A stretch of DNA of 64,000 nucleotides from Kofleriaceae bacterium (GTDB lineage: Bacteria; Myxococcota_A; Polyangia; Haliangiales; Haliangiaceae): the NCBI GenBank assembly GCA_041389925.1, contig JAWKQX010000006.1:407837-471836 (forward strand), read 5' to 3'. Every line of letters begins with the position of its first letter. Position 1 is the stretch's first letter. The notes beneath the pieces were generated by a model, which was given only the letters and a program-made list of their open reading frames with translations, did no database searches and had not been told where the DNA came from. Below, one piece after another: positions 22,143-57,061 of this stretch. The translations under genes were made by a program, and so were the position numbers.

Positions 22143-22571
22143 GTTCGTTCTCCCCTCGAGGTGGCCTGATTTGTCGACGAGCAGGGGAGGGATAGCCCAC
22201 GGTGAGGCGGTGCGTCAAGCGGCGCCGGGGCGCCGTCGGGACGAGCCTTGAGCGCGCGTCCCTGAGGAAGTCTGCGATCAGGAAACGTACTGCAGATCGC
22301 GCCGGCACGAACGTGAGTACGCAAACACCAGGTTGCGGTGGGGCCGCGAGGCCCCGCAACCCACAAGCTGCAGACCTACAAGGGAGGATGGGAGGTCTGT
22401 AGCGCGGCTCGCGCTCGAGCCTACATCGTTGGATCTCCGAGAACTCGCATTATCGGCGGCCTACGAGCGATGGCGGGATCGCGCTGAGCGCCGGTGGAGC
22501 TGGGCACGAAAAATGAATAAAGGGCGGCCAACGATTCGGTCCCTACTCACTCTCTGCTGGAAGGTTGATCC

Positions 22572-24821
22572 ATGAAGATTCGCTCTCGCTCCGCGGTCGC
22601 GCTCGCTGCCGCCGCGCTGGCTCCGCTCTCGCTGGTTGCGTGTTTCCCCGACGCCACCGAGAAGAACGAAGAACCCGACTCCAAGCTAGTGAAGGTCGCG
22701 AAGCCGGTCGAGGGCGAGTACATCGTCGTCTTCAAGGCTCCGGCCGGTTCGCGCGCGATGGCGCCGGTGGAGGTGCTCGCCGCCTCGGAGCAGCTCCTCG
22801 CGCCGCTCGGCCGCAAGCCGGAGCACCAGTTCACCGCGGCCCTCCAGGGCTTCTCGGTGGCCAACCTGACCGAGCAGGAGGCCAAGGAGCTGGCGGCGGA
22901 TGAGCGCGTCGAGTACGTGCAGGAGAACGGCGTGGTGTCGATCGACGCCACCCAGACCAACCCGCCGAGCTGGGGCCTCGATCGCATCGATCAGCTCGCC
23001 CTGCCGCTCAACAACGCGTACACCTACAATGCGGACGGCACCGGCGTCACCGCGTTCATCATCGACACCGGCATCCGCGCGACGCACACCAACTTCGGTG
23101 GCCGCGTCGGCACCGGCTTCACGTCGATCAACGACGGCCAGGGCACCAACGACTGCCAGGGCCACGGCACGCACGTCTCGGGCACCGTCGGCAGCGCCAC
23201 CTATGGCGTCGCCAAGAACGTCACGCTCATCCCGGTGCGCGTGCTCAACTGCCAGGGCAGCGGCACCGACGCGGGCGTGATCGCCGGCGTCGACTGGGTC
23301 GCCGCCAACCACAGCGGCCCGTCGGTGGCCAACATGAGCCTCGGCGGCGGCGCGTCGCCCTCGCTCGACGCCTCGATCCGCAACCTCGTCAACGCGGGCG
23401 TGACCACGGTCGTCGCCGCCGGCAACGAGACGCAGAACGCCTGCAACGTCTCGCCGGCGCGCGAGCCGCTCGCCATCACGGTTGGCTCGTCGACCCAGAC
23501 CGACGCGCGCTCGAGCTTCTCGAACTTCGGCACCTGCGTCGACATCTTCGGCCCGGGCTCCAGCATCCTGTCCACCTCCAACGGCAGCAACACCGCGACG
23601 GCGACCCTGTCCGGTACGTCGATGGCGAGCCCGCACGTCGCGGGCGGCGCGGCGCTCTACCTGTCGGCCAACCCGACGGCGACGCCGGCGCAGGTGGTGG
23701 CCGCGCTGACCGCGAACGCGTCCTCGGGCCGCCTCTCCGGCGTCAACGGCTCGCCGAACCTGCTGCTCAACATCAGCTTCATCGGCGGCGGCGGCGGCAA
23801 CGTGCCGCCGACCGTGTCGATCACCGCGCCGGCCGCCGGCGCGACGGTCAGCGGCACGGTGACCGTGTCGGCCACCGCCGCGGACTCGGACGGCACCGTC
23901 GCGAGCGTGCGCTTCAACCTGCCGGACGGCAGCACGGTCGTCGACAGCACCGCCCCGTACTCCACCACGTGGAACTCCACCACCGTGGCCAATGGCGCGG
24001 CGACCATCAGCGTGACCGCGACCGACAACGCCGGCGCCACCGCGACGGCCACCCGCAGCGTCACCGTCTCCAACGGCGGCGGCGGCGACTGCATCAACGG
24101 CACGTTCAACGCGACCGACGTGCCCCAGGCGATCCCGGACAACAACGCGACCGGCATCACGTCGTCGCTGGCGGTCACCGGCAACGGCAACGTCGGCAGC
24201 CTCGCGCTCTCGCTCAACATCACCCACACCTGGCGCGGCGACCTGGTCGTGACCCTGACCTCGCCCACCGGCACGGTGTTCACCGTGAGCAACCGCGCGG
24301 GTGGCTCGGCGGACAACCTGATCCTCACCGACTCGGTGATCACCACGTTCGCCGGTCAGCCCGCCGCGGGCACCTGGCTCCTCAAGGTCCAGGACCGCGC
24401 CGGTGCCGACGTCGGCAACCTCAACTCGTGGTCGCTGCGCATCGTCGGTGACTGCGGCGGCGGCGGCGGCGGCGCCTGGTCGGGCTCGGCGAACCCGAAC
24501 CTGCCCACCGTCGACAATGGCCAGGTTTGCAGCACGCTCAACGTGACCGCGACCGGCGGCATGGCGTCCGACGCCAAGCTCAACATCTCGGGCACGCACG
24601 ACTACCGCTCGATCCTGCGCGCGACGCTGGAGCACAACGGCACCACGGTGACGGCGTTCCCGACGCGCACCTTCCCCAACGGGGCGGGCACGTTCGCCTT
24701 CACCGACCGCGTGATCGCGGGCCTCAGCGGCGACGCGGCCGGCGCGTGGACGCTGTGCCTCGTCGACACCGACGGCTTCGGCGACACCGGCGTCTTGTCG
24801 AGCTGGTCGGTGCACAACTAG
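22572..24821 (+). CDS. Secreted subtilisin-like serine protease (peptidase S8) with Ig-like and two proprotein-convertase P-domains
   Basis: Signal peptide with lipobox-like LVAC. Inhibitor_I9-like propeptide. Catalytic triad D (FIIDTGI), H (HGTHVSGT), S (GTSMASPHVAG). Two P-domain-like segments (HTWRGDLVVTLTSPTG ; GTHDYRSILRATLEH). GGAAGG RBS. Confidence 0.85.
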   Translation: MKIRSRSAVALAAAALAPLSLVACFPDATEKNEEPDSKLVKVAKPVEGEYIVVFKAPAGSRAMAPVEVLAASEQLLAPLGRKPEHQFTAALQGFSVANLTEQEAKELAADERVEYVQENGVVSIDATQTNPPSWGLDRIDQLALPLNNAYTYNADGTGVTAFIIDTGIRATHTNFGGRVGTGFTSINDGQGTNDCQGHGTHVSGTVGSATYGVAKNVTLIPVRVLNCQGSGTDAGVIAGVDWVAANHSGPSVANMSLGGGASPSLDASIRNLVNAGVTTVVAAGNETQNACNVSPAREPLAITVGSSTQTDARSSFSNFGTCVDIFGPGSSILSTSNGSNTATATLSGTSMASPHVAGGAALYLSANPTATPAQVVAALTANASSGRLSGVNGSPNLLLNISFIGGGGGNVPPTVSITAPAAGATVSGTVTVSATAADSDGTVASVRFNLPDGSTVVDSTAPYSTTWNSTTVANGAATISVTATDNAGATATATRSVTVSNGGGGDCINGTFNATDVPQAIPDNNATGITSSLAVTGNGNVGSLALSLNITHTWRGDLVVTLTSPTGTVFTVSNRAGGSADNLILTDSVITTFAGQPAAGTWLLKVQDRAGADVGNLNSWSLRIVGDCGGGGGGAWSGSANPNLPTVDNGQVCSTLNVTATGGMASDAKLNISGTHDYRSILRATLEHNGTTVTAFPTRTFPNGAGTFAFTDRVIAGLSGDAAGAWTLCLVDTDGFGDTGVLSSWSVHN

Positions 24822-27927: not shown

Positions 27928-28122
27928 TCTCGGCGCGCGGCCGAGGCGACGCGGCTCGTCGCCGTGGGGGCGCCGCGCGTCCGCCTTCGCGGGCCCGCGC
28001 GCCTCGAACCCGAAAAGCGAGACGCCGGCCCCGAAGAGGCCGGCGGTCGGTGAAGGCAGCGGTCCGTGGGACCTCACGCCCTCGGGCGCCTCGCTACGTC
28101 GCGAGGCGCCGGGCTCCGTGGC

Positions 28123-31100
28123 TCAGTGGCTGTCGTCGTCGCGATCGTGGCCGGCGCGCAGCGGGATCAGCTTGGCTTCCTTGCTGCCGCTGCGGTTGTC
28201 CGGCGTGACGATCATGTGGCCGAGGGCCGGCGTGAGGGCCTGCTCCTCGGTGTTGAGCGCGACGGGGACGAACGCGACCTCGCCCGGGGCCACGGCGATG
28301 AAGTCGCCCTGGGACACCGCGCTGGAGTACGCGTTGAAGCCGGCGAAGCCGTCGGTCTCGTCGGTGTCGGCGCTGTTGAGGTCGAACGTCGCGACCGAGT
28401 AGTCGAACCGCGGGTTCTCCGGGGTCAGGCCGAGCTGCGACGAGTCGACCGGCAGGAGCATCGTGCTGCCGTTGGTCGGCGCGTAGGCCAGGTAGAACAC
28501 GCTGATGCCACCGGTGGACAGGTCCAGCACGGCGCTGGCGATCTGGCCGCTGAAGCCGGCGCCCTGGAGCAGGCCGAGATCGACGCCGATCACGATGTAG
28601 TCCGGCACGCCGTCGCGGTTGGTGTCGACGGGGATGTCGAACTCCATCAGCGCCGGGGTCGACCAGGAGCGGTGCGTGTTGACGGCGAACACGAGGAGCT
28701 GCGAGCCGCCGTTGTCGAACGCCTGCACGCCCGCGGCGCGGATGTCGACGTAACCCTGGTTATCGTTGAGGTCGCTGTGGCCCCAGGCGTAGAAGTCCGC
28801 GGTGCCGGTCAGCTCGCTGTCCTCGTTGCTGACGCGCGCGAACGCCTGCGTCCAGCGCGAGCCGAGGCGCGGCGCCACGTTCGCGTTGACGTTGGCCTGC
28901 GGGCGGAGCACGGCGTAGTACGGCACCGTCAAGGCGGCGTCGCCGTTCTGACCCGCAGCCGGGGTGAGCACCACGACGCCCGCGGCCTCGCGGAACGCGT
29001 TGGAGTCGCCCGAGGTGGCGGTGTCGATGGAGATCGTCACGTTGACCGAGAACGTGTTGTTCGCGGGGACGGTGATCGAGCTCGGGCTCAGGGTGACCTG
29101 GTGCGGCGAGCCCTGCGGGCGCGCGGCGGCGAGGTTGAAGGTGATCGCGGAGTTGCCGCGGTTGCGCACGCGGATGGTCTTGGTGCGCAGGTAGTCCGCC
29201 TTCTGCTCCAGCACGCCGAGGCTGAGGTGGATCTCCTCGGAGTCGGCCCAGGCGAACGCCTGCGTGCGGACGGCCGCGAGGGCGTTGACCACGCCGGCGC
29301 CGGCGCGGCGCGTCGGGTAGTTCACGACGCCCGCCGGGTCCGAGGTGTTGACGATGGCGTTCTTGATCTGACCGGCGCTCCACCGCGGGTGCGCCTGGCG
29401 CACGAGGGCCGCGAGGCCGGCGGTGTGCGGGGCCGCCATCGACGTGCCGGAGAACACCACGCCGCCGCTGCCCGAGCCGACCGCGGCCGACTGGATGGAG
29501 ACGCCCGGCGCGGTCACGTCAGGCTTGAGGTGACCGTCGACGAGACGGGGCCCAAGCGACGAGAAGCTCGCCAGCGTGTTGAAGCCGGGGTTGTTGATGA
29601 CCGACGACGCGATCGCGAGCTGCTGGCCATCGAGGGTCTTGAGCAGCGCCTCGTTGCCGAGGTTGGTGCCGAAGAACGGGATGGTGACGGTGTAGAACTC
29701 GCCGTCGTCGGGGTTCTGGGTGATCGGGCCCTCGAACGGCGGCAGCGCGTTGGCGGTGTTGACCATCAGCACGGCGGCGGCGCCGGCCTTCTGGCCGTGA
29801 ATCGCGCGGGCAACGCGCGCGCAGGAGCCGCGCTTGGTCACCACCAGCTTGCCGGCGACGTCGGCCGGGTAGTCCGCCGGGGAGCAGCCGAGCTTGAGGT
29901 TGCCGGCGGCGTCGAGCAGCAGCTTGACCTCGAGCGACGCGTGGTTGACCGCGGCGCCGTTGGCGTTCAGCGCGGTCATCGGCGCGGCGCCGGTCGCCGT
30001 CAGCGACACGGCGGGGAACGACGGGGTCGGGTCCTGCGCGGCGACCGAGATCGCGCGCGAGGCGGACGCCGGCGAGCCGGTGATGTACGAGACGGCGCCG
30101 CTGTTGCCCGCGGAGGCGACGACGACGATGCCGGCGCGGACGGCGTTGTCCGTGGCGACCGCCGACGGATCATCGGACTCGCCGAACGACGAGCCGAGCG
30201 ACATGTTCACGACGTCCATGTCATGGGCGACGGCCCAGTCGAGCGCGTCGACGACGAGGTTCGTCGAGCCGCTGCAGCCGAAGACGCGCAACGCATAGAG
30301 CTCGGCCTTCGGGGCGACGCCCGGACCGACGATGAAGGAGTTGCCGGCGTAGGTGTCCGCGTCGTACGGGCCCGCGAACCGGCTGCCGTCGGCGAGGACG
30401 CCGAAGCCGCCGACGGTGCCGGCGACGTGGGTGCCATGACCACCGCAGTCGAGCGGGTTTCCGTCGGGCTGCGGGGAGCTGTTCGGGTTGTTGGCGTCGT
30501 AGTCGTCGCCGGCGAAGTCGTAGCCGCCCTTGACCTTGGCCGCGCCCGGGCCGAACAGCGCGGGATCCGCGGGGTCGGCGCTCGCCGCGAACGCGGCGTT
30601 GAAGGCCTCCGGGGTGCCCGGACCGCCGAAGTCGGCGTGGGTGTAGTCGATGCCGGAGTCGATGATGGCGACCTTGATGCCCTCGCCGTGGAAGCCGTCG
30701 ACGCCGGCGAACGGCGCCCAGGCGCCCGGCGCGCCGATGCGCTTGGCGCCGTTGACGTTGTTGGGCAAGAAGACCTGCGGGCGGTGGATGCGCACCACGC
30801 CGGGCAGGTTGCGGAGCGCGGCGATCTGCGAGGAGGAGATCTCGACGCGCAGGCCGTTGTAGGCGTCGCGGTAGCGCGCGTTGACGGTGCCGCCGAGCGA
30901 GCGGACGCTGCTCTCGACGATCGCCTGCTCCGACGCGATGCGGCTCCGCGTCAGCGCCTTGTCCGAGGCGCTCAGCGCGGTGCCGGCGTCCGCCTGGACG
31001 CGCGCGACCGGCGCGCTCGCGAGCTCGACGATGAACGTCTCGATCCGAGCGCCCTGAGAGCGTGGGGTGAACGACGAGTTGCCCGACGTGAAGTTGGCCT

Positions 31101-31227
31101 TCTCGAACCGAGCCATCGAGCCCGCGCGATCGGTCTTGGGCTGGTTCACCGTTTGCGATCCGTCTTGGTCCTGACAGCCGACGGCGAGTAGCAACGGAAC
31201 TGCAAGTAACGCCCTCTGGTGCTTCAT
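28123..31227 (-). CDS. Large secreted subtilisin-like serine protease (peptidase S8) lipoprotein with PA-like insert and C-terminal beta-rich domains
   Basis: MKHQRALLAVPLLLAVGC signal/lipobox. Propeptide. Catalytic D (VAIIDSGID), H (GHGTHVAGTVGG), S (GTSMAAPHTAGLAAL). PA-domain-like insert. About 400-aa C-terminal extension. ATG at 31227 preceded by GGAGGA RBS; upstream ATG at 31242 also possible. Confidence 0.85.
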   Translation of the reverse strand: MKHQRALLAVPLLLAVGCQDQDGSQTVNQPKTDRAGSMARFEKANFTSGNSSFTPRSQGARIETFIVELASAPVARVQADAGTALSASDKALTRSRIASEQAIVESSVRSLGGTVNARYRDAYNGLRVEISSSQIAALRNLPGVVRIHRPQVFLPNNVNGAKRIGAPGAWAPFAGVDGFHGEGIKVAIIDSGIDYTHADFGGPGTPEAFNAAFAASADPADPALFGPGAAKVKGGYDFAGDDYDANNPNSSPQPDGNPLDCGGHGTHVAGTVGGFGVLADGSRFAGPYDADTYAGNSFIVGPGVAPKAELYALRVFGCSGSTNLVVDALDWAVAHDMDVVNMSLGSSFGESDDPSAVATDNAVRAGIVVVASAGNSGAVSYITGSPASASRAISVAAQDPTPSFPAVSLTATGAAPMTALNANGAAVNHASLEVKLLLDAAGNLKLGCSPADYPADVAGKLVVTKRGSCARVARAIHGQKAGAAAVLMVNTANALPPFEGPITQNPDDGEFYTVTIPFFGTNLGNEALLKTLDGQQLAIASSVINNPGFNTLASFSSLGPRLVDGHLKPDVTAPGVSIQSAAVGSGSGGVVFSGTSMAAPHTAGLAALVRQAHPRWSAGQIKNAIVNTSDPAGVVNYPTRRAGAGVVNALAAVRTQAFAWADSEEIHLSLGVLEQKADYLRTKTIRVRNRGNSAITFNLAAARPQGSPHQVTLSPSSITVPANNTFSVNVTISIDTATSGDSNAFREAAGVVVLTPAAGQNGDAALTVPYYAVLRPQANVNANVAPRLGSRWTQAFARVSNEDSELTGTADFYAWGHSDLNDNQGYVDIRAAGVQAFDNGGSQLLVFAVNTHRSWSTPALMEFDIPVDTNRDGVPDYIVIGVDLGLLQGAGFSGQIASAVLDLSTGGISVFYLAYAPTNGSTMLLPVDSSQLGLTPENPRFDYSVATFDLNSADTDETDGFAGFNAYSSAVSQGDFIAVAPGEVAFVPVALNTEEQALTPALGHMIVTPDNRSGSKEAKLIPLRAGHDRDDDSH

Positions 31228-31580: not shown

Positions 31581-34500
31581 TCAGTCGAACATGATCACGC
31601 CCGCGGCCCAGGCGCGGCCGCGGGCCAGGTAGCGCTCGCGGAGGGCCGCGAGCGCGGCCGCAGGGGCTTCGCCGGCGCGCAGGCGCTGGTGGAGCTCGGC
31701 GAAGAACGCCGTGGCCTCCTCGTCGGGGATCTCCACGGTGGGAGCGATCACGGAGCGGGCGCCCGCGTCGAGGAAGGCGTCCGGGAGGCTCCAGCGGCGG
31801 TGCTCGTACGGCACGGTCGCGCCAGCGCGGCAGGCGGCCAGCACGATGGTGGGCGCGCCGCGGAGCTGGGCAGCGCGCACCTGCGTCGCGGTGAGGGCCC
31901 AGCTTTGGTCCGCGCCGGGCGACAAGGCGAGGAACGACGCGTCGGCGAGGCCGATGTCGACCTGGCCGTGGACGTGGAGCTCCGCGTAGGTCGCGGTCTG
32001 GAGCGCGGCGAGCACCCGGCTCGGCGTGGCCTCGGCGCCGCGGAGCTCGAGGCCGGTGGGGTGCGCGGCCATCGGGGCGAGGGCGGGGAGGCCGACCGAC
32101 GCGGGCGGGAGGGCGTCGCCGACGAACACCTCCTGCGTCGGCTGCGCGGCCGCGGCGGGGGCCGCGGGCGCGCGGCGCTGGCCCCAGAACGCCCAGGGGA
32201 GCTCGGGAGGCAGCAGATCCGCGCGACCGTGGAGCGGCGGGCGAGCGAGCACCGAGATGCGCGGGCAGCCGCGCAGGGCCGCGCGCAGCGCGTCCGGGAC
32301 CAGCCGCGCCCCGGACCACTGTGGCGGGGTCTCGACCCGAGCGCGCGCGCCGGTGGCCGCGCCGTGGGCATCGAGCGCCACCGCCGTGCCGCGCGTGTCG
32401 TCCAGGCTGACGACGAGCGCGCAGGTCTGCGGCGGCGGCGCGCCGAGCTCCTCGGCGGCGAGCGCGACGGCCTCGGTCCACGCGCCGCGGCGGGCCGCGT
32501 CGTCGATGATCGACTGGTAGATCCAGGCGCGGAACGCGAGGCTGGTCTCGTCGCTGCCGGTCAACGTCGGCAAGAGCTCGCGCAGCTTCGCCGTGGCGCC
32601 GGGGTCGTCGTCGAGCTGCAGGCGCGCCTCGGCGATGGCCGCGAGCCGATCAAGCTCGGGGTCTGCGGCGGCGTGGGCGGCGGCGAGCCAGGTCTGCGCG
32701 CGTGCGCGATCCTCGGCGCGCCCGGTCATCCTCGCCAGGTCGACCAGCGCACTCAGCTCTAGCGGGGCGGGCGGTTGGTCGCAGGCGTCGGCCGGGGCGA
32801 GCACCACGCCGCGCAGGCTGGCGGTGCGGTACACCGCGATGAGGAGCTGTCCGATGGTGATGAAGCGGGTCACGCTGCAGCTGCGGTCGCCGATCCTCAA
32901 GATCGCTTCCTGGAACGTCGCCGAGGCGAGGGCGAAGCGGCCGCGGCCGCGGCGGAGCTCCGCGAGCTGGGACACCATCTCATCCTCGACGGAGGTCGCG
33001 CCGGAGTCTCGGTACAGGGTCAGCGCCAGCTCCGCGTAGGTCTCGGCCTCGCGGTAGCGCGTCTGCGCTTCGTAGAGGCGCTTGAGCTCGACGGCCAGGC
33101 CGGCGCACCGGTGGCCCCAGCGGACGCGGTCGCAGGTCGCGAGCGCCGAGCGCAGCATCTCCTCGGCTTGGTCTCGGGCGTCGGCGGCGACGAGCTCCGA
33201 GCTGCGCAGCACCGGCAGGTACAGCTTGAACCAGGGGTCCTCGGTGGCCTCGAGCATCGCGGCGAGCTCGCCGCGGCGCTCGCCGGGGTGGAGGGCGCGG
33301 GCGTAGAAGAGGGCGCCGAGCCGCAGATCGCCGAACCGCGCGCGAGAACGATCCAGGCGATCCAGCAGCACAAGCGGCGACTCGGATGCGGTGCCGGTGG
33401 CGAGCGCTCGGTACGCCGCGGCGAGGGGCGCGCGGAGCGCGAAGTCGCTGGCCGCGACCTCGTCGACCGCGCGGCGCGCGTCGCCGCGGCCCACGGCGGC
33501 GTCGAGCGCCTCGGCGAGCGGCGCCAGCGCCCGCGCCTGCGCGCGCGTCATGGCCGAGCGGAGCGCGTCGTGGAAGTACAGGCGGCTGAGGCCGGGCCGC
33601 GACGCGGCGTCGGCGGCGGTCAGCGGCGGCCCACCTTCCACCATCGCGCGCGCCGCCGACGCGAACGCCGCGGCCGCGCGCGCGCGCTCGTCCATCGTCG
33701 CGCGCAGCGCCGCGGCCTTGGCGCGCGCCTCGTCCGCCCAGCCCGGCTCGCCGCGCCGGATGATCTCGTCGAGCGCGGCCGCGGCGGCGAGCGGCAGGCC
33801 GAGCTCGCGCAGCGCGAGGGCCCGGTTCCAGTGGGCGGGCGCCAGCGCGGGCTCCGCGGCGAGGGCGCGATCGGCGGCCTCGAGCGCCTCCTCGGCGCGT
33901 CCGGCGAGCAGCTCCGCGGCGGCGAGGTCGGCGTCGCGCGGCGCCGTCGGGGGCAGCGCGGTGAGCGCGGCGAGCGCCTTGGTCGGCTCGCCGGTGAGCG
34001 CCAGCGCGGTGGCCAGCGCGGCGCGGTCGCCGCGCCGCTCGAGCCCGGCGAGCGCCTCCAGCGTGAACGACTCGCGCCCCGCCTCGCCGCGGGCTACCGC
34101 GTACGGCCGGAAGCCGTCGAAGGGCGGCGTCGTGAAGCGCACCTCGACGCCGCGCTGCTCCGCCAGCGCCAGCGCCGGCGCGGCGGGCGTCTTCGGTGCG
34201 ACCACGCAGCGCGTGATCAGCACGGCGGCCGCGGTCAGCGTGAGCGCCAGCGCGGCCGACAGCGCGGCGCGGCGGGCGCGCAGGTGTCGTCCTCGCTCGA
34301 GGGGGATCGGCTCCGCGGCGGCGGGCGCGGGGCCCCGGGCGACGCCAGGTGATGAGCCTGCGTTCGGCGCGGCGGACTCGCGGGCGGCGGCAGGCGACGA
34401 CTCGCTGGCCGACGCGGCGACCTCGCGAACGGGCGCCGGCGACGAGCTCGCCTCTGGCGCGAGCTGGGGCGCGGCGGCCTGCCGCTGCGGGTGACGGAGC

Positions 34501-34649
34501 GCGACCTCGAGGCCGACGAGATCTCCCAGCTCTTCCTGGCACTGCGCGCACGACGCGAGGTGCTCGAGCGCCGCGGCGTGCTCGGCTTCCTCGAGCTCAC
34601 CGTCGAAGTAGCGGGAGGTCAGGGCGTGCAGATCGACCGGGTCACTCAT
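31581..34649 (-). CDS. Anti-sigma factor (zf-HC2) - TM - TPR repeats - CHAT domain (caspase-like protease) fusion protein
   Basis: N-terminus HAAALEHLASCAQCQEEL is the ZAS/zf-HC2 anti-sigma motif. Single TM helix ALSAALALTLTAAAVLI. Long Ala/Leu-rich TPR-like region. C-terminal CHAT with putative catalytic His (AELHVHGQVD) and Cys (TIVLAACRAG). ATG at 34649 overlaps the stop of the upstream ECF sigma gene (ATGAGTGA). About 1022 aa. Confidence 0.75.
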   Translation of the reverse strand: MSDPVDLHALTSRYFDGELEEAEHAAALEHLASCAQCQEELGDLVGLEVALRHPQRQAAAPQLAPEASSSPAPVREVAASASESSPAAARESAAPNAGSSPGVARGPAPAAAEPIPLERGRHLRARRAALSAALALTLTAAAVLITRCVVAPKTPAAPALALAEQRGVEVRFTTPPFDGFRPYAVARGEAGRESFTLEALAGLERRGDRAALATALALTGEPTKALAALTALPPTAPRDADLAAAELLAGRAEEALEAADRALAAEPALAPAHWNRALALRELGLPLAAAAALDEIIRRGEPGWADEARAKAAALRATMDERARAAAAFASAARAMVEGGPPLTAADAASRPGLSRLYFHDALRSAMTRAQARALAPLAEALDAAVGRGDARRAVDEVAASDFALRAPLAAAYRALATGTASESPLVLLDRLDRSRARFGDLRLGALFYARALHPGERRGELAAMLEATEDPWFKLYLPVLRSSELVAADARDQAEEMLRSALATCDRVRWGHRCAGLAVELKRLYEAQTRYREAETYAELALTLYRDSGATSVEDEMVSQLAELRRGRGRFALASATFQEAILRIGDRSCSVTRFITIGQLLIAVYRTASLRGVVLAPADACDQPPAPLELSALVDLARMTGRAEDRARAQTWLAAAHAAADPELDRLAAIAEARLQLDDDPGATAKLRELLPTLTGSDETSLAFRAWIYQSIIDDAARRGAWTEAVALAAEELGAPPPQTCALVVSLDDTRGTAVALDAHGAATGARARVETPPQWSGARLVPDALRAALRGCPRISVLARPPLHGRADLLPPELPWAFWGQRRAPAAPAAAAQPTQEVFVGDALPPASVGLPALAPMAAHPTGLELRGAEATPSRVLAALQTATYAELHVHGQVDIGLADASFLALSPGADQSWALTATQVRAAQLRGAPTIVLAACRAGATVPYEHRRWSLPDAFLDAGARSVIAPTVEIPDEEATAFFAELHQRLRAGEAPAAALAALRERYLARGRAWAAGVIMFD

Positions 34650-35208
34650 CGCTCGATCCTCCCAGCAGCGCGCGTAGCCGCCGGCGCGCCCGCAGCACCC
34701 GCGTGCCCACGGTGGCGACCGGGACGTCGAGCGCCTGCGAGATCTCCTTGTAGCTCTGCCGCTGAAACTCGAAGCGCTCGAACGCCTCTTTGAGCTCGTC
34801 GGGCAGCTTGGCGACGGCGTCGCGCACCTGGCTGGTGGACAGCTCCTCCCACCATGATCGCTGCTCTGGCGGCGGCGCGGAGAGCGCGACGTCATCCACG
34901 TCGACGCGCGTCGGCGCCGCGGTGTGCGCCCGTACGCGATCGACGAACAGGTTGCGCATCACGCGGGCCATCCACGCCGCGTGGTTGATGTCGGCGGGGA
35001 GGCGATCGAAGTTCGTCACCGCCTTGAGCAGGACGTCTTGCACCAGATCCTCCGCGTCGAAGGTCCCGCGGCACAGCTTGCGCGCGAGGCCGCGCAGAAA
35101 GGCCTGGTGCTCTACCATGAGCGCCTCGAGGCGTCGCTGGGCTGCATCATCGTCTGGATCGACGGAAGGCGACGCCCCTTGTTCCCCGGAAGATTGCAGG
35201 TGCCCCAT
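34642..35208 (-). CDS. ECF (sigma-70 family, group 4) RNA polymerase sigma factor
   Basis: Region 2 (FDAEDLVQDVLLKAVTNFDRL ... AWMARVMRNLFVDRVR) and region 4 HTH (SYKEISQALDVPVATVGTRVLRARRRLRALL). Start at Met giving about 188 aa; longer ORF extends to 35325. Confidence 0.8.
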   Translation of the reverse strand: MGHLQSSGEQGASPSVDPDDDAAQRRLEALMVEHQAFLRGLARKLCRGTFDAEDLVQDVLLKAVTNFDRLPADINHAAWMARVMRNLFVDRVRAHTAAPTRVDVDDVALSAPPPEQRSWWEELSTSQVRDAVAKLPDELKEAFERFEFQRQSYKEISQALDVPVATVGTRVLRARRRLRALLGGSSDE

Positions 35209-35297
35209 GGTGAACCAGACGCGGTGAATATACGGGCAATCCTCCATTCTTGGCCACCCGCGAGGACGCACGAGGTCGGCGTGGAGCGACGCTTGCG

Positions 35298-35321
35298 CCG
35301 CCTCGGGCTCGATCCGCGGGA
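35298..35321 (+). promoter_or_regulatory. Candidate ECF-type promoter (GGAAC-N15-CGTC) upstream of divergent lipoprotein gene
   Basis: GGGAACaaggactggtatctaCGTCA on the plus strand about 80 bp upstream of the ATG at 35401. Resembles ECF -35 GGAAC / -10 CGTC architecture. Lies in the intergenic region divergent from the ECF sigma gene. Confidence 0.3.
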
Positions 35322-35400
35322 ACAAGGACTGGTATCTACGTCATCCAAGGGACCCACGATCGGCTGGTCGTGGCCTTCTCGCTTGCCTGGAGATCATTCG

Positions 35401-35901
35401 ATGAAGCGCTCTGTTCTCGTCGCTGTGCTCACGTTCTTCCTCGCCGCTTGCCCCGCGGCGACGCCGCGCCCCATCTCGCTGAGGCTCAAGGCACCGCCGC
35501 CCACACCGCAGCGCTGGAGCGGCGAGGTGCGCGAGGCTCGCGGCGAGGGCATGGTGTGGGTGATGTCGCCCTTCGACGAGGCGGGCGAGCGGTGGATCCT
35601 CTCGCTCGTCAACGTGCGGCAGCAGGTCATCGAGGCGACGTACATCGTTCCGAACGCGGAGCGGTTCCACGCCATCGAGGCGACCTCGGGCGGTGGCGGT
35701 GGGATCTCCACCGGGATCGAGTGGGTGATCATCGGCAGCGTGCGGCCAGGGCCCCGGCCCGGGCCGATCGGCGACCCGGACCCCTTCCTGTCGCGGGAGC
35801 ACCTCAACGTCGCGGCGAACGCGCTGGCGCCGCTCAAGGCCAAGATCCTCGATGAGACGCCGACCCGAGGCGCGGCGTCGCGCGACGAGCAGGCGCGCTG
35901 A
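35401..35901 (+). CDS. Lipoprotein, hypothetical
   Basis: MKRSVLVAVLTFFLAAC signal/lipobox. 166 aa. No known domain. Gly-rich GGGGGISTGIEW segment. Confidence 0.5.
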   Translation: MKRSVLVAVLTFFLAACPAATPRPISLRLKAPPPTPQRWSGEVREARGEGMVWVMSPFDEAGERWILSLVNVRQQVIEATYIVPNAERFHAIEATSGGGGGISTGIEWVIIGSVRPGPRPGPIGDPDPFLSREHLNVAANALAPLKAKILDETPTRGAASRDEQAR

Positions 35902-35991
35902 ACAGCAGGCGCGACGAGCAGGCGCGCTGAGCAGGCGCGCCGATGATGCACGCACGCTCGATGCGCTCACCCGCGGCGCACCGGCGCCGCG

Positions 35992-36993
35992 CTACTTGGG
36001 CAGGAACGCGGAGCCCAGGCGCATGTCGATGGTGAGGTCCTCGGTGCCTTGCTTGAGGCGCACCTTCGTGGAGACGGTGCTCGTCAGCTTGGGGTACAGC
36101 GCGCCGGGCGCGAAGACCGCGTCGACGTGTCCGCTGCCGGAGATCTCCGAGACCTCCACGCCTTGCAGCGTCTGGTTGGCGCCCGTCACCTTGGTCTCGC
36201 CGGAGATGGTCGCACCGTCCTTGTTGCGCGAGACCAGCTTGTACGTGGTGACGTGGGTCGTGGCGATGCCGTTGATCTCGCTCTCCTCGGTCACCTCCCA
36301 GCGCGCCCCGACGCCGACGGGCACGGCGGGCAGCGGGACCCAGGTGGGCAGCATGAGCTTGAGCGACTCCAGCGCGCCGGCGGTGGTGTGCTCGGGCTTC
36401 TCGATGCGATAGGTGGTCTCGCCGACGCCGCCCGCCGCCGTCACCGTGCCGTCCACGGTCATCCCTAGCAGCGAGGAGATCTGCGTCTTGAGCGCGGCCG
36501 GCGGGATGCTCTGGTTGGCGCGATCGCGCGCGTCCACGGCGTCGATGACGGTGTGGTAGGTGGAGGCGCCATCGGCGGCGACCGCGGTGGCCTCCCCCGT
36601 GCCGCTGAGCACGACCGTCGGCATCGTCACGGTCTGGGGCTGCTGGCCGACCGGCGCCTGCTCGATGGTCGCGTCCATGATCAGCTCGACCTGCTGCTTG
36701 CTTGAGGCCGTGGGCGCGACGCGCAGCGGTGCGCGTGCGCCCTTGCCCGGCGAGAGGAGCTTGACGGTGGTCTTCGGCGCCGGCAGCACCATGGTCACGG
36801 GCTCGGCCGGGGGCGGGGGCGGAGCTGGCTCGGCAGGAGGCGCCGGCTCGGTGGGAGGCGCCGGCTCGGCCTGCGGCGCGCCCGCGGCCGGGTCGAGCTT
36901 CGAGTCGGGGATGGTGTTGGAGTTCGAACCGGAGGAGCCGCCGCAGGCGACGGCACACGCCAGCAAGGCGAAGGCGACAGAGGAGCGGAGCAT
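35992..36993 (-). CDS. Lipoprotein with Pro/Ala-rich linker, hypothetical
   Basis: MLRSSVAFALLACAVAC signal/lipobox. PAPPTEPAPPAEPAPPPPPAEP linker. Beta-rich C-terminal domain ending in F. Confidence 0.5.
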   Translation of the reverse strand: MLRSSVAFALLACAVACGGSSGSNSNTIPDSKLDPAAGAPQAEPAPPTEPAPPAEPAPPPPPAEPVTMVLPAPKTTVKLLSPGKGARAPLRVAPTASSKQQVELIMDATIEQAPVGQQPQTVTMPTVVLSGTGEATAVAADGASTYHTVIDAVDARDRANQSIPPAALKTQISSLLGMTVDGTVTAAGGVGETTYRIEKPEHTTAGALESLKLMLPTWVPLPAVPVGVGARWEVTEESEINGIATTHVTTYKLVSRNKDGATISGETKVTGANQTLQGVEVSEISGSGHVDAVFAPGALYPKLTSTVSTKVRLKQGTEDLTIDMRLGSAFLPK

Positions 36994-39466: not shown

Positions 39467-42400
39467 GTGCTGCCTCGTCGACTCCCCTCACATCCTCTCC
39501 TCGTAGGTGCTCTCTTCCTCGCCGTCGCCGCGTGCGGAGGCGGCGGCGATCCCGACCAGCCGAGCGTCGTCGAGCAGGCGGTGTGGAGCAACGGCGACTT
39601 CGAGAGCGACCCCATCGGCACCACGCCGCCGACCGGGTGGACGCTCACCTCGAACCTCCACCCCGGGATCACCGACACGCGACCGTCGCCGCAGACCTTC
39701 TCCAGCCTCAACCTCGCGGCGGGTGGAACGCTGATGACCGCGGTCGTCGGTGGCGCGCCGGAGTCGCAGCTCGATCTCGATCTGCTCACCAACGGCGTGC
39801 TGCGCTTCCCCAAGTACGGGCAGCGCGCGACGAGGGTCAACTCCAACGCGGCGAACGCGGGCACCTCGCGCAACGTCAACACGCTCAAGCAGACCATGAC
39901 GGTGAGCCTGGGCGACGTCGATCCCGTCGACAACAAGGTCCACGTGCGCTTCGCGGTGGCCCCGGTGCTGGAGAACCCCGGCCACTCGTACACGTCGCAG
40001 CCGTACTACTTCGTCCGGCTGCAGAACCTGACGAAGGGCCTCACCGTCTACCAGGACTTCAACGCCAGCGGGCAGCCTGGCGTGCCGTGGCAGAACTTCA
40101 CGGACACGAGCGGGCAGGCGGCGCAGTTCACCAACTGGCAGCTCGTCGACGTCTCCCCGGGGGACACCCAGCTCGCGGTGGGGGACCAGGTGGAGCTGAT
40201 GGTCATCGCCGCGGGCTGCTCCGCCGGGGGTCACTGGGGGCACGTCTACGTCGACGCGGTGGGCTCCGGCGTACCGGGCCTGTACTCGTGGGCGACCGGC
40301 CCGCAGCTCGCCAACGCGGGCTCCACGATCACCTACACGCTCAACTACAAGAACGGCGGCACCACCACGACCAACGGCACCCGGCTCGACTTCGTCACAC
40401 CGCCGGACACGACGTTCCAGTCGGTGAGCCTCGGCGCCGCGTGCACCACGCCCGCCGTGGGCGCCACCGGCACGGTGAGCTGCCCGATCGGCACGCTCGC
40501 CAACGGCTCGACGGGCTCCTTCCAGGTCACCGTGAACATCCCGCCGGCGACGCCGAACGGTACCGTCATCCTCAACGGCAACTACTCCATCTACGCCACC
40601 GGCATCTCGGCGCTGATCGGACCCAAGGTCTTCACCACCGTCACCAACTCGGTGTCGTACGCCGACCTCGGCGTGACGATCAGCGACGGCGTCGCGGCGA
40701 TCGCGTGGGGTCAGCCCACCACGTACACCATCGACGTGACCAACGACGGTCCGGTGGCGGCGCCGGTGGCCACGGTGACCGACACCATGCCGGCGCAGCT
40801 CACCGGCGTGACCTGGACGTGCGCGGCCAGCGGCGGCGGCACGTGCACCGCGTCGGGGAGCGGCAACATCAATGACGCGGTGTCGCTGCCGGTCGGCGCG
40901 CACCTCGTCTACACCGTGTCGGCGGCGATCATCGCCGGCTCGGGGAGCGGCCAGGTGATCAACACCGTCACGGTCGCCACCGGCGGCGGGGTCACCGATC
41001 CCGACACCACGAACAACACCGCGCTCGACACCGACGCGATCGGCACGCTGCGCACGCTGACCTTGACCAAGCTGGGGACGGTCTCGGGCGGCCTGGTCAG
41101 CTCGGTGCCGACCTCGATCTCGTGCGGCACCGGCTGCGCCAGCGACAGCGGCCAGTTCCTCGACGGCTCGCAGGTGGTCCTCACCGCGGCGCCGGTGGTG
41201 GGCGCGACCTTCACCGGCTGGGGTGGGGCCTGCTCCGGCACCGCGACGAGCTGCACCGTGACGATGACCGGCGACCAGAGCGTGACGGCGTCCTTCACCG
41301 GCGCGCCCGCGGCGATCAGCGTGGTCGGCGGCGGAGCGCAGAGCACGACGATCAACACCGCCTTCGCCTCGCCGCTGCAGGTCCTGGTGACGGACGCCGG
41401 GGGCATCCCGGTGCCCGGCGCCGCGGTCGCCTTCGCCGCGCCGGGCAGCGGCGCCTCGGCGACCTTGAGCGCGACCACCGCGACCACCAACGCCGCCGGT
41501 CTCGCCAGCGTCACCGCGACGGCGAACGGCACCGCCGGGACCTACTCGGTCACCGCCACGGTCAGCGGCGTGCCCCCGGCCTCGTTCTCGCTGAGCAACG
41601 TCGGCATCCCGACCTCGATCAGCGTGGTCAGCGGCAGCGGCCAGAGCGCCACGGTGAACACCGCCTTCGCGGCGCAGCTCGTCGCGGTGGTCCGAGACGC
41701 GGCGAGCCAGCCCGTCCCCGGGATCACCGTCACCTTCACCCCGCCGGCCAGCGGCGCCGGGGCGACGCTGAGCGCGGCGACCGCGGTCACCAACGCCAGC
41801 GGCCAGGTGAGCCTCAACGCGACCGCGAACACCGTCGCGGGCTCCTACGCGGTGACCGCCTCGGTCGTCGGCGTGGTGACGCCGGCGAGCTTCGCGCTCA
41901 CCAACACGGCCGGCGCGCCCGCGACGTTGACGTTGCTCGGCGCGACGACGCGCTCGGCGACGGTCGACGCGTCGCTGGGGACCTTCACCGCCCAGGTGAC
42001 CGATGCGTTCGGCAACCCGGTGTCGGGCGTCACCTTGACCTTCAGCGCGCCCGGCAGCGGCGCGACCGCGCTGCTCAGCAGCGGCACCTCCGTGACCAAC
42101 GCGAGCGGCCAGGCCAGCATCACCGCCACCGCGGGCGCCGTCGCCGGCTCGTACGCCCTCATCGTGAGCGGCACGGGCCTCGCCTCGCAGAGCTTCGCGC
42201 TCACCAACACCGCGGGCGCGCCGGCGTCGCTGGCCATCGTCAGCGGCGACAACCAGCAGGCCACCGTCGACGGCGCGTTCGCGCCGCTCGTCGTCGTGGT
42301 GCGCGACGGCCACGGGAACCCGGTGCCCGGCGCCACCGTGAGCTACGCGGCGCCTGGCGCCGGCGCCACCGCGGTCGTCACGCCGTCCGCGATCACCGAC

Positions 42401-45400
42401 GCCGCGGGGCAAGCGAGCGCCGCCGCGACGGCGGGCGCGATCGCCGGGGCGTTCGCCGTCACCGCCTCGGTCACCGGCGTCACGCCGGTGTCGTTCGCGC
42501 TGGAGAACCTCGCCGGCGCGCCGGCCGCGATCTCGATCGCCTCCGGCTCTCCGCAGACCACCGCGGTGACGACCGCCTTCTCCGCGCCGCTGGTGATCCG
42601 CGTCGTCGATGTGCACGGCAACGCCGTGCCGGGCGCCGCCGTGACGTTCACGCCGCCGGGCAGCGGCGCCTCCGCGAGCCTCAGCGCCACCACGGTGAGC
42701 ACCGACGCCAGCGGCCTCGCGCAGAGCGACGCCACCGCCAACACGGTCGCCGGCAGCTACGCGGTCACCGCCTCGGTCGCCGGCGTGGCCACCCCCGCGA
42801 GCTTCGCGCTCACCAACACCGCGGGTCCGGCGACCACGCTGACCCTGCTGGCGCCGACCTCGCGCACCTCGGTGGTCACCGGCTCGCTCGGCACGCTCAC
42901 CGCGCAGCTCCGCGATGCGTTCGGCAACCCGGTGCCCGGCGCGACGGTGTCGTTCAGCGCGCCGGCGTCCGGCGCCACCGCGACGCTCAGCGCCGGCTCC
43001 GCCACGACCAACGCGAGCGGCCAGGCCAGCATCACCGCGACCGCGGGCACCATCGCCGGCGCGTTCGCGATCACCGTGAGCGCCACCGGCACCGTCTCGC
43101 AGACCTTCCTGATCACGACGACGCCCGGCGCGCCCGCATCGCTGTCGATCGTCAGCGGCGATCCGCAGAGCGCGGTGGTCGACGCCGCGTTCGCGCCGCT
43201 CGTCGTGGCGGTGCATGACGCCCACGGCAACGTGGTGCCGGGGGCGACCGTGACCTTCACCGCGCCCGGCGCCGGCGCCACGGCGAGCGTCGACGGCAGC
43301 GCGGACACCGACGGCCTGGGCGTGGCGACCGCCGCGGCCACCGCGGGCACCGTCGCCGGCAGCTACACGGTGGTCGCGTCGCTCGGCGCGCTCGCGCCGG
43401 TCTCCTTCACCTTGCAGAACCTGCCCGGCGCGCCGGCCTCGCTCGCGCTCGTCGGTGGCGGCGATCAGAGCGCCGTGGTCACCACGCCGTTCGGCTCCCC
43501 GATCGCGGTGCGCGTGCTCGACGCGCACGGCAACCCGGTGCCCGGCGCGACCGTCACCTTCACCCCGCCGGGCGCCGGCGCCTCCGCGACCCTCAGCGCG
43601 TCGGTCGTGACCAGCGACGCCAGCGGCGTCGCGCAGATCAGCGCGACCGCCAACACGGTGGCCGGCGCGTACGCGGTCGGCGTCGCCGTCGCCGGCGTGG
43701 CGACCCCGGTGAGCGTGGCGCTCACCAACACCCCGGGCGCGCCGGCGTCGATCAGCGTGACCTCCGGCGGCGCGCAGAGCACCGTCATCGAGACCGCGTT
43801 CCCGCTCCCGCTCGGGGTGATCGTCCAGGACGCGCATGGCAACCCGGTGCCCGGCGCGACCGTCTCGTTCTCCGCGCCGGCCAGCGGCGCCACCGCGGCG
43901 CTGTCCACCTCGACGCTCACCACCGACGGCGGCGGCCTCGCGCAGAGCTCCGCTACCGCGAACTCGATCTCGGGCAGCTACCTGATCACGGCCGCGGTCG
44001 CGGGCGTCGTCACCTCGGCGCAGTTCAGCCTGCGCAACACCGCGGGCGTCGCGGCGACCATCGACATCGTCTCGGGCGGCGCGCAGGAGACCGTGGTCGC
44101 CACGCCGTTCCCGCAGCCGCTCGTCGTCCTGCTGCGCGACGCCTCGGGGAACCCGGTGCCGGGCGTCTCGGTGCGCTTCGCCGCGCCGCCGAGCTCGCCG
44201 AGCGCCGCGCTCTCCGCGGAGGTCGCGCTGAGCGATGACGCCGGCCTCGCGACCATCACCGCGACCGCGGACCCGCGGGCGGGCAGCTACGACGTCACCG
44301 CCGAGCTGCGGCCCGGCGTGACCGCGACCTTCTTCCTGCGCAACCTGCCCGGCGCGCCCGCGCAGCTCCGCGTCGGCGCGGCCAGCTCGCCGCAGTCCGC
44401 CACCGTGCTGACCGACTTCGTCGAGACCTTGCTGGTGCGCGTCGAGGACGCGTTCGGCAACCCGGTGCCGGGCGTGACCGTCAGCTACCAGGCGCCCGGC
44501 GCCGGCGCGACCGCGACCCTGACCTCCTCGACCGCCGTCAGCGACACGTTCGGCGAGTGCGAGGTCGGGGCCACCGCGGGTGCGGTGACCGGCCTCTACC
44601 TGGTGACCGCGACGGTGTCCGGCGTCGCCGACGCGGCCGTCTTCGCGCTCACCAACCTCGCCGGCGCCCCGACCTCCGTGGTCGCGGAGGCCGGCGCGGC
44701 GCAGGCGACCGAGGTGGACACCGACTTCGCCGAGCCGCTCACCGTGCGCGTGCTCGACGCGCTCGGCAACCCGGTGCCGTCCGCGGTGGTCAGCTTCGCG
44801 GCGGCCGCCACGCCGGCGACCGCGGCCCTGTCGGCGTCGTCGGTGGCCACCGACGGCGAAGGCCTCGCCTCGGTGATCGCCCACGCGAGCACCGTGACCG
44901 GCAGCCACGTCGCGACCGCGGTCGTCGACGGCGCCGCCACCCCGGTGATCTTCTCGCTCACCAACACGCCCGGCGCGCCGGACTCGGTCACCGTCGGCGC
45001 GGTGGCCTCGCCGCAGCAGGCGGAGGTGACCACCGCGTACCCGCACGACCTGCTGGTGCGCGTCGCCGACCGCTTCGGCAACGCGATCCCCGGCGTCGAG
45101 GTCACCTACGCGGCTCCGGACAGCGGCGCCACCGGCGTCCTGTCGTCGACCACCTCCACCAGCGATGACGCCGGGCTCGCGTCCGTCGGGATCGTCGCGG
45201 GGACGCAGGCCGGCCCGTTCACGGTGACGGCCTCGGTCGCCGGCGTGCTCCTCTCGGCGCAGTTCCAGCTCACCAACCTCGCCGGCGCGGCGCACACGCT
45301 GTCGCTGGTCTCCGGCGACGGTCAGGTGACCACCGTCGACACGGCGTTCGCGGAGCTGCTCCTGGTGCGCGTGACCGACATCTTCGGCAACCCGGTGGCG

Positions 45401-55756: not shown

Positions 55757-55873
55757 GGCGGCAGGGTACACGAATCCGCCGCGCTGACGACCGCGCGAGG
55801 TCCCGGCGACTTGGCGCTGACTTCTAGCGAGGCGCGTCTTGCTCAACCTGTCTGACAGTGGCAAGAGTCCTGG

Positions 55874-57061
55874 ATGCTCTCGGTCCAGGACGCCATCGCC
55901 AAGATCGCCGCGGCGGTGCGGCCGCTGCCCGACGAGCCCGTCGCCTTGACCGAGGCGGCGGGGCGCGCGCTGGCCGAGCCGATCCACGCGCCGCGCCCGC
56001 TGCCGGGCTTTGACAACTCGGCGATGGACGGGTACGCCGCGCGCAGCGCCGAGCTGCCCGCGACGCTCCCCGTCGCGGGGGTCGCCGCCGCGGGAGCGCC
56101 GCCGCTCGCCGAGCCGGCGCCGGGCGCCGCGGTGCGCATCTTCACGGGCGCGTACCTGCCGCCGGGGCTCGACGCGGTGGTGCTCCAGGAGGACGCCGTC
56201 CGCGACGGCGATCGCGTCACGCTGCCCGCCGCGGCGCCGGGCGCGAACGTGCGCCGGCGCGGCGAGGACGTGGAGGCCGGCGCGCTCGCGCTCGCCGCGG
56301 GCACGCGGCTGGGGCCCGGGGAGCTCGGCCTGCTCGCCGCGCTCGGCGTGGCGGAGCTCCGCGTGCGCCGGCGCCCCCGGGTCGCGATCCTGGCCACCGG
56401 CGACGAGCTGGTCGACGTCCGCGCGCCGCTGGGGCCCGGCCAGCTCGTGGACTCGTCGCGCTACGCGCTGATGTGCGCGGTGCAGGAGCTCGGCGGCGAG
56501 CCGACCTACCTGGGCATCGTCCCCGACGACCGGCGGGCCACCGCGCGCGCCATCGCGACCGCGCTGGCGTACGACGTGGTGCTCACCACCGGCGGCGTCT
56601 CCGTCGGAGATCGCGACTTCGTCAAGGACGCGCTCGCCGACGCCGGCGTGGCGCTGGAGCTGTGGAAGGTGGCGATGAAGCCCGGCAAGCCGCTGGCCTT
56701 CGGGCGCGGCGCGAGCGCGCTGGTGTTCGGCCTGCCCGGCAACCCGGTGTCGTCGATGGTCTCGTTCGAGCTGTTCGTGCGCCCGGCGCTGCGCGCGCTG
56801 CAGGGGCTCGCCGGGCCCGCGCGGCCCCGTGCCCCGGTCGGCCTCGTCGGCGGCTACCGCAAGCCCGCGGGGCGGGCGCACTACCTGCGCGCCCACGTCG
56901 AGCGACGCGGCGACCGCCTCCTCGCCACGCCGCACCCCAAGCAGGGCTCCGCGATGCTGACGTCCCTCGTCGGCATCAACGCACTGGTAGAGATCGAGGC
57001 GGCCGTTTCCGAGGTGGCGCCCGACGAGGTCGTGACGGCGCTGCTGCTGGAGGCGGTGTGA
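55874..57061 (+). CDS. moeA: Molybdopterin molybdenumtransferase MoeA
   Basis: PLPGFDNSAMDGYA ... RIFTGAYLPPGLDAVV ... VLTTGGVSVGDRDFVK ... PGKPLAFG ... GLPGNPVSS are canonical MoeA motifs. Confidence 0.85.
   Translation: MLSVQDAIAKIAAAVRPLPDEPVALTEAAGRALAEPIHAPRPLPGFDNSAMDGYAARSAELPATLPVAGVAAAGAPPLAEPAPGAAVRIFTGAYLPPGLDAVVLQEDAVRDGDRVTLPAAAPGANVRRRGEDVEAGALALAAGTRLGPGELGLLAALGVAELRVRRRPRVAILATGDELVDVRAPLGPGQLVDSSRYALMCAVQELGGEPTYLGIVPDDRRATARAIATALAYDVVLTTGGVSVGDRDFVKDALADAGVALELWKVAMKPGKPLAFGRGASALVFGLPGNPVSSMVSFELFVRPALRALQGLAGPARPRAPVGLVGGYRKPAGRAHYLRAHVERRGDRLLATPHPKQGSAMLTSLVGINALVEIEAAVSEVAPDEVVTALLLEAV

Follow-up and report, generated by a model that had tools for sequence, protein, structure and literature searches.

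DdvA and DdvS of Myxococcus xanthus (MXAN_7288/7289) were characterised genetically in 2018 (NAR; PMC6061681), and their structures were reported in 2024 (Sci Adv; PMC11506125; PDB 8ROT, 8RW5 and 8RLZ). DdvA, a transmembrane anti-sigma factor of 991 aa, is composed of a cytoplasmic three-helix domain with a CHCC zinc site (ligands C6, H28, C32 and C35; helix alpha3 is shorter and the fourth helix is absent), one transmembrane helix, and a periplasmic module of scaffold, tetratricopeptide repeats (TPR) and CHAT domain, and the full-length protein with DdvS forms an arrow-shaped dimer in cryo-electron microscopy (PMC11506125). Many Myxococcota hold several DdvA-like pairs, just a subset of which lies near defence genes (PMC11506125). 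In this study we analysed a stretch of 64,000 nucleotides from a Kofleriaceae bacterium (GenBank assembly GCA_041389925.1, contig JAWKQX010000006.1, positions 407,837 to 471,836 of the forward strand; G+C content about 72%), referred to below as the window, in which the gene for a sigma factor of the extracytoplasmic function (ECF) type is followed by that for a 1022-aa protein of the DdvA architecture. All the positions given hereafter for the locus and its neighbours are those of the window.

A search with phmmer against the PDB sequences matched 900 residues of the 1022-aa protein (aa 122-1021) to the DdvA chain 8rot_B with E=4.9e-81, the His/Cys dyads of the two proteins being aligned with each other (H894 with DdvA H862, C940 with DdvA C907). 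With the AlphaFold2 model as query, Foldseek gave DdvA again as the best PDB match (8rot_A; E=4.4e-40, TM-score 0.65/0.72, 915 aligned columns, 31% identity), and the next matches were human separase and the craspase TPR-CHAT protein (Csx29) with E=3e-9 to 3e-7. An anti-sigma zinc domain, a single transmembrane helix, the scaffold-TPR-CHAT fold, the dyad and an upstream ECF sigma gene were all found, and the locus, judged by its sequence, is thus a member of the already characterised DdvA-like class, with every defining feature that can be looked for in sequence. A previous sequence-only reading of this DNA had taken the protein for an uncharacterised anti-sigma class, a claim that does not hold since the architecture is that of DdvA/DdvS as described in 2018 (PMC6061681) and 2024 (PMC11506125).

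The gene for the DdvA-like transmembrane anti-sigma factor lies at 31581..34649 on the minus strand, and its product (starting MSDPVDL) is 100% identical to a database protein (P0001) annotated as 'CHAT domain-containing protein' and encoded in a metagenome-assembled genome (MAG) of Kofleriaceae (Myxococcota). The AlphaFold2 model, built on an alignment of 80 sequences, has a mean pLDDT (predicted local distance difference test) of 89.3 and a pTM (predicted TM-score) of 0.84, and conservation was judged from 80 homologues, 26-62% identical and almost all from Myxococcota. The cytoplasmic zinc-binding anti-sigma domain (aa 1-52; 34494..34649, minus strand) is modelled as a three-helix bundle (helices 9-15, 21-33 and 35-52, pLDDT >90), and Pfam zf-HC2 (PF13490) matches aa 9-38 with E=1e-4 and 22.7 bits, just over the cutoff of 22.2. 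Its predicted ligands H8, H30, C34 and C37 align with C6, H28, C32 and C35 of DdvA; the last three are kept in 72 of the 74 homologues that possess the N-terminus, and at residue 8, the first ligand, 31 have His and 26 have Cys. The site in the window protein is predicted to be HHCC. An Ala/Pro/Ser-rich, disordered cytoplasmic linker (aa 53-116; 34302..34493, minus strand; pLDDT <50 for aa 54-116) leads to the single transmembrane helix, the hydrophobic core of which (aa 127-150; 34200..34271, minus strand) is the sole Kyte-Doolittle peak above 1.4 and is overlapped by the modelled helix 117-144. The flank on its N-side is basic (RGRHLRARR) and obeys the positive-inside rule for an N-in/C-out orientation, which places the large C-terminal part probably outside the cytoplasm.

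The predicted periplasmic part begins with a helical scaffold and TPR superhelix (aa 197-735; 32445..34061, minus strand), delimited by the modelled secondary structure and by the Foldseek alignment to 8rot, and includes a 34-residue helix (304-337) comparable in position and length to the 37-residue 'midrib' helix alpha12 of DdvA. Three Cys pairs (506/515, 591/623 and 743/795), all confined to the extracytoplasmic part, are conserved in 75-79 of the 80 homologues and fit periplasmic disulfides. The CHAT caspase-like domain (aa 744-1022; 31584..32420, minus strand), with its alpha/beta region at 744-1021 in the model, is matched by Pfam CHAT (PF12770) on aa 832-1010 with E=5e-18 and 66 bits (cutoff 24); at 279 aa it is close to the 290 aa of the DdvA domain and aligns with it without large insertions. 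The two catalytic-type residues, H894 in HVHGQ (codon 31968-31970) and C940 in LAACRAG (codon 31830-31832), are invariant in 80 of 80 homologues down to 26% identity. The sequence-only reading had already named the zf-HC2 N-terminus, the single transmembrane helix, the periplasmic TPR-like region and the CHAT domain with its His/Cys dyad, and on the evidence above this domain reading is confirmed far beyond chance.

Immediately upstream on the minus strand lies the DdvS-like ECF sigma factor gene (34642..35118), the stop codon of which (TGA, 34642-34644) and the ATG of the anti-sigma gene (34647-34649) stand together within ATGAGTGA, an overlap of 8 nt; that the two genes overlap had been noticed from the letters alone. 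The product contains Sigma70_r2 (E=1e-12) and Sigma70_r4_2 (E=7.5e-13) and no further Pfam domain, and matches NCBIfam TIGR02937 (sigma70-ECF) with E=4e-23; because only these two regions are present, it is classified as ECF-type (group IV), a class with sigma2 and sigma4 only and of about 160-200 aa, to which its length of 158-188 aa corresponds. The nearest solved structures are those of Mycobacterium tuberculosis SigH and SigE, and no DdvS chain was among the matches to PDB sequences. The start had been put at ATG 35208, which gives 188 aa and probably lies 90 nt upstream of the true start: a gene caller used independently begins the protein at M31 (ATG 35118; 158 aa), the G+C content at third codon positions is 0.63 for the 30 codons upstream of M31 against 0.89 for the remainder downstream (lowest 30-codon window there, 0.83), a Shine-Dalgarno-like GAGG stands 5 nt 5' of ATG 35118, and a putative ECF-type promoter falls within the 30 extra codons of the 188-aa frame. 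The spacer of this promoter varies from 15 to 17 nt across related loci, which implies differing reading frames, and for all these reasons taken together ATG 35118 is probably the start.

Related loci were collected by a scan with a 9-sequence alignment using one genome per species, which yielded 79 loci, nearly all of them in Myxococcota and with no strict DdvA orthologue among them. Of the 73 loci in which the upstream sequence is long enough, 62-63 have an ECF sigma gene immediately preceding the homologue, in the same orientation. Most of the exceptions belong to a subgroup of proteins that start with the transmembrane helix and carry no anti-sigma domain (for instance P0049 and P0054). 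This Myxococcaceae/Hyalangium subgroup (L016, L022, L024, L028, L029 and L071) has neither zf-HC2 nor an adjoining sigma gene, and by its sequences consists of predicted periplasmic TPR-CHAT proteins that are anchored in the membrane and not coupled to a sigma factor. The two closest genomes (L001 and L002) keep the gene order of the window, that is, Old Yellow Enzyme, DUF6263 protein, sigma and anti-sigma, and in both a second, convergent sigma/anti-sigma-CHAT pair stands by the side of the first (L001, 7454-10940 plus strand and 18588-16242 minus strand; L002, 8001-10952 plus strand and 14995-11485 minus strand), which suggests a recent duplication. For the first pair of L002 no sigma gene was detectable upstream.

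Two ECF-type promoter motifs stand back to back between the sigma gene and a divergent gene for a lipoprotein. The putative autoregulatory promoter of the sigma/anti-sigma operon, GGAACAAGGGGCGTCGCCTTCCGTC, lies at 35161..35185 on the minus strand, and the promoter facing the lipoprotein gene, GGAACAAGGACTGGTATCTACGTC, at 35319..35342 on the plus strand, 58 nt 5' of the lipoprotein ATG. Both share GGGAACAAGG and CGTC(A/G)ATCC in the layout GGGAACAAGG-N11/12-CGTC. A corresponding GGAA[C/G]-N15-17-CGTC was found at the position of the sigma promoter in 14 related loci and also in metagenome contig L083, and GGAA[C/G/T]-N15-17-CGT[A/C/T] is directed towards the lipoprotein gene in 12 of 15 loci, against 2 of 15 with the pattern on the opposite strand of that spacer. 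The conserved position of the motif at 35161-35185 suggests that it is the promoter of the operon itself. The same spacer carries a conserved TATATTC/TAGTATC element (35226-35232, minus strand), about 25-30 nt upstream of ATG 35208 and at the same position in L001b, L002b, L006, L007 and L055; in these other loci it adjoins the -35 of the divergent promoter, and it may represent either a sigma70 -10 or an element of the UP type.

The divergent gene (35401..35901, plus strand), called both by NCBI and by the independent caller Logan, encodes a lipoprotein of 166 aa with the lipobox LAAC. It has no Pfam match, and a single-sequence search of 5.8e9 proteins returned the self-match alone; its AlphaFold2 model is uninformative (pLDDT 44.6). 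In 14 related loci the corresponding position is taken by a protein of 137-176 aa with only 16-24% identity to the window protein, and a hidden Markov model (HMM) prepared from the 14 mature counterparts, with the window protein excluded, recognised it with 31.5 bits (E=2e-8), where the best of 2000 shuffled sequences reached 10 bits. By this HMM the family stands beside the sigma/anti-sigma pair in 19-21 related loci, all from Kofleriaceae, Haliangiales or unclassified 'Myxococcales' MAGs, and was not found at the Myxococcaceae DdvA-like loci, that of DdvA itself included. A profile search with the family added just 10 unannotated proteins, and a search seeded with the lipoprotein found one member (P0088), on four metagenome contigs (L081-L084), flanked by a divergent ECF sigma factor (178 aa) and a CHAT protein (949 aa). 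From these comparisons of sequence and position, the family is, within the Kofleriaceae/Haliangiales clade, a fast-evolving, conserved neighbour of the DdvA-like pairs. Both the lipoprotein gene and its ECF-like promoter, pointed out in the sequence-only reading, are real, and the further suggestion made there, that the gene could belong to the sigma regulon, is supported: it is the likely regulon member. A text search for 'lipoprotein' gave no match in either of the two DdvA papers (PMC6061681 and PMC11506125), and a lipoprotein partner with a matching promoter, not found there, is a modest addition to a known class. In contigs L081-L084 (6517-8673, plus strand) the lipoprotein gene is followed 49 nt further on, on the same strand, by that for a PF13699 (eCIS_core) protein of 654-718 aa, which may belong to the sigma regulon there.

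In the comparison with DdvA-DdvS, the two systems agree in the order of sigma gene and anti-sigma gene within one operon, in the N-terminal zinc-binding anti-sigma (ZAS) three-helix domain, one transmembrane helix, periplasmic scaffold, TPR and CHAT domain with a His/Cys dyad, in the origin from Myxococcota, and in the AAC...CGT type of ECF promoter. They differ in that the zinc site is CHCC in DdvA and predicted to be HHCC here, that the disordered cytoplasmic linker of DdvA is about 58 aa shorter (residue 122 of the window protein aligns with DdvA 64), that the -35 of the DdvS promoter is GTAA whereas that in the window is GGAAC, that the divergent lipoprotein gene conserved at loci of the window type is not reported for ddvSA, and that ddvSA has CBASS and CRISPR neighbours, none of which occur in the 64 kb of the window. 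Craspase Csx29 and eukaryotic separase share the TPR-CHAT fold and the caspase-type dyad, but these are cytoplasmic or nuclear, monomeric proteins without membrane anchor or anti-sigma domain, are controlled by the RNA-guided Cas7-11 or by securin, and possess a three-helix active-site motif that DdvA lacks. The class I zinc anti-sigma domains (HHCC in RslA, CHCC in RsiW, and those of RsrA and ChrR) share the H-x3-C-x2-C motif and the three-helix bundle, the extracytoplasmic parts of these proteins being small or unrelated. The RseA-DegS-RseP system and the self-cleaving anti-sigma factors RsgI and FoxR are likewise single-pass proteins in which removal of the periplasmic domain precedes the site-2 protease; they employ a separate serine protease or non-enzymatic self-cleavage, in contrast to the in-built cysteine protease proposed here, which would act in trans within the dimer.

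How such a pair may work is best approached through DdvA, for which the ZAS domain was found to bind both sigma2 and sigma4, and the full-length protein was found to be stable, whereas the protein lacking TPR-CHAT is degraded in an RseP-dependent manner (PMC11506125). In DdvA, V129-P140 is the segment that comes nearest the dyad of the partner protomer, and autoproteolysis by CHAT followed by release of the sigma factor is a published, unproven hypothesis for DdvA (PMC11506125), with which the mechanistic guess of the sequence-only reading coincides. In the window protein this segment aligns with a juxtamembrane periplasmic loop, V185-E193 (VARGEAGRE; 34071..34097, minus strand), where pLDDT falls to 79 in the block 181-190 and R187, a Met in DdvA, reaches at least 90% conservation across the family; by analogy the loop is a candidate self-cleavage site, which we regard as a lead and not as evidence. 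Sequence and model together indicate that the N-terminal HHCC three-helix domain holds the sigma factor in the cytoplasm, and that the module of about 870 residues following the transmembrane helix, with its strictly conserved His894 and Cys940, has the same predicted scaffold-TPR-CHAT fold as DdvA.

We therefore read the locus, with a probability of roughly 0.8, as a DdvS/DdvA-type pair, in which a single-pass inner-membrane anti-sigma factor, translationally coupled to its ECF sigma factor, releases the latter by proteolysis, with its own operon and the lipoprotein gene, and not CBASS or CRISPR-Cas, as the output. By analogy with DdvA, the periplasmic module, probably a dimer, would block the site-2 protease RseP; a periplasmic signal, probably a protein, would activate the CHAT domain, which would then cut the other protomer in its juxtamembrane loop (here at about V185-E193); RseP and cytoplasmic proteases would destroy the remainder and free the sigma factor. 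The freed sigma factor, to judge from the promoter motifs, would transcribe its own operon and the divergent lipoprotein gene from the two near-identical back-to-back promoters.

Several observations weigh against this reading. One feature of the DdvS/DdvA antiviral regulon, an adjacent CBASS/CRISPR-Cas island served by GTAA-N16-CGT promoters, was not found in the 64-kb window: neither CBASS, CRISPR nor other specific defence genes were detected when PADLOC and Pfam were applied to the neighbour genes (PADLOC gave a generic subtilase only), and the DdvS-type motif GTAA-N16-CGT had 0 matches. Without defence genes in the 64 kb, the biological role may differ from that of DdvA/DdvS, to which, moreover, the overall identity is just about 31%. 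Two related loci (L006 and L007) have no in-frame start codon after the sigma-promoter motif, for which reason the assignment of sigma start and promoter is probable and not proven. As to the protease itself, proteolysis or autoproteolysis by CHAT is a hypothesis even for DdvA, in which the dyad residues are 11 A apart in a resting state with an 'incomplete' active site, the pocket lacks the three helices, and the H862A and C907A mutants behaved like wild type in the absence of signal (PMC11506125).

These properties of DdvA, namely the resting active site without the three-helix substrate-pocket motif and the dyad mutants without phenotype (PMC11506125), together with a CHAT domain of about DdvA size that aligns without large insertions, are also what could be expected if CHAT bound a ligand as a sensor and acted as a steric plug, the cut before RseP being left to a separate site-1 protease (a secreted subtilase or an enzyme of the DegS/Prc type), as in canonical regulated intramembrane proteolysis of the RseA type. 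A gene for such an enzyme is at hand, since that for an S8 subtilase lipoprotein (28123-31227, minus strand; 1034 aa, lipobox LAVGC, with Inhibitor_I9, Peptidase_S8 with PA insert, and fn3_5) follows directly after the anti-sigma gene and has the same orientation. The two genes are, however, separated by a 353-nt, AT-richer gap that contains a sigma70-like promoter for the S8 gene (TTTACA-16-TACAGT, 31323-31296), and tblastn found no homologue of the subtilase in the 79 related loci. Being absent from these loci and having its own promoter, the subtilase was rejected as conserved partner or site-1 protease and is taken for a neighbour, not a component; the sequence-only reading was right in that such a lipoprotein gene adjoins the locus (1034 aa, not 1030), and its suggestion that the gene could belong to the system is not supported, with 0 of 79 related loci carrying it. 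The dyad, moreover, is invariant among all 80 homologues even at 26% identity, which argues for retained catalysis, and we consider a pure sensor and plug possible yet rather unlikely.

If CHAT is an active protease, its substrate could be another periplasmic protein, the co-regulated lipoprotein or an incoming foreign protein, and release of the sigma factor would then follow engagement of that substrate instead of self-cleavage. TPR arrays normally bind partner proteins, craspase and separase both cleave separate substrates (PMC11506125), and a fast-evolving lipoprotein gene with the same promoter type is kept beside the pairs in 19-21 loci; but the model of the lipoprotein is uninformative, and the absence of the lipoprotein from the Myxococcaceae DdvA-like loci, including that of DdvA, means that it is not a general requirement. 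This alternative to self-cleavage appears improbable to us. A related and speculative extension, which we hold to be unlikely though somewhat less so, is that the functional unit in Kofleriaceae and Haliangiales is a three-gene module of lipoprotein, ECF sigma and TPR-CHAT anti-sigma, where the lipoprotein, besides being an output, would be a working partner of the periplasmic TPR-CHAT domain (co-sensor, decoy or substrate), the engagement or cleavage of which sets the switch, and would be induced by the same sigma factor as a feedback loop. The least probable explanation, to which we give little credence, places the switch in the cytoplasm, where oxidation or loss of zinc at the HHCC domain would free the sigma factor as in RsrA, RshA and ChrR, the periplasmic domain being secondary. 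The conserved H-x3-C-x2-C motif and the best solved relatives of the sigma factor, SigH and SigE of M. tuberculosis, agree with such a switch, and the authors of the DdvA study raise a contribution of reactive oxygen species (PMC11506125); many ZAS domains are nevertheless not redox sensors, RslA and RsiW being cited as structural ones (PMC11506125), and a strongly conserved periplasmic module of 870 residues with an invariant dyad would be left unexplained.

The other genes of the window include those for fatty-acid and redox enzymes, two subtilases, an SLT-LysM transglycosylase, a hybrid histidine kinase, a Ser/Thr kinase and an M28 peptidase. The second subtilase (22569-24821, plus strand) is a secreted protein of 750 aa with I9, S8, Big_7 and P_proprotein domains, and about 300 nt upstream of its gene there is a loose ECF-type motif, GGAAGTCTGCGATCAGGAAACGTA, at 22266. 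An intergenic GGAACAACGCGTCCCGCGAGCGTC motif (2346-2369, plus strand), about 160 nt upstream of the gene for a PAS-GAF-PAS hybrid histidine kinase (2531-5179), could mark a distant member of the regulon or a target of another ECF sigma factor. A 2692-aa repeat protein (39467-47545, plus strand) with 15 Big_1 and 8 Invasin_D3 stretches, CarboxypepD_reg and DUF11 is, from this composition, probably a surface adhesin, and a 1603-aa protein (52940-57751, minus strand) carries PD40 repeats and PA, Peptidase_M28 and PDZ domains. Long antisense shadow open reading frames (ORFs) are typical of high-GC DNA, and two such frames were rejected as genes: that at 35852-36412 (plus strand) is the antisense shadow of the DUF6263 gene with its conservation confined to the overlap, and that at 28066-31191 (plus strand) has no Pfam match, the real gene being on the minus strand.

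Since the class is already characterised, the locus adds nothing new in kind to the anti-sigma factors. It is of value for comparison, in that DdvA-type sensors with an invariant dyad also exist away from phage-defence islands, and one clade keeps beside them a constant small lipoprotein neighbour sharing the promoter type of the sigma factor. Having three genes and a candidate periplasmic partner among them, this simpler version could be of use in the search for the signal to which the DdvA CHAT domain responds and for its substrate, and, should the three-gene module turn out to be true, it would offer the first handle on the activation of a DdvA-type CHAT protease, away from CBASS and CRISPR.

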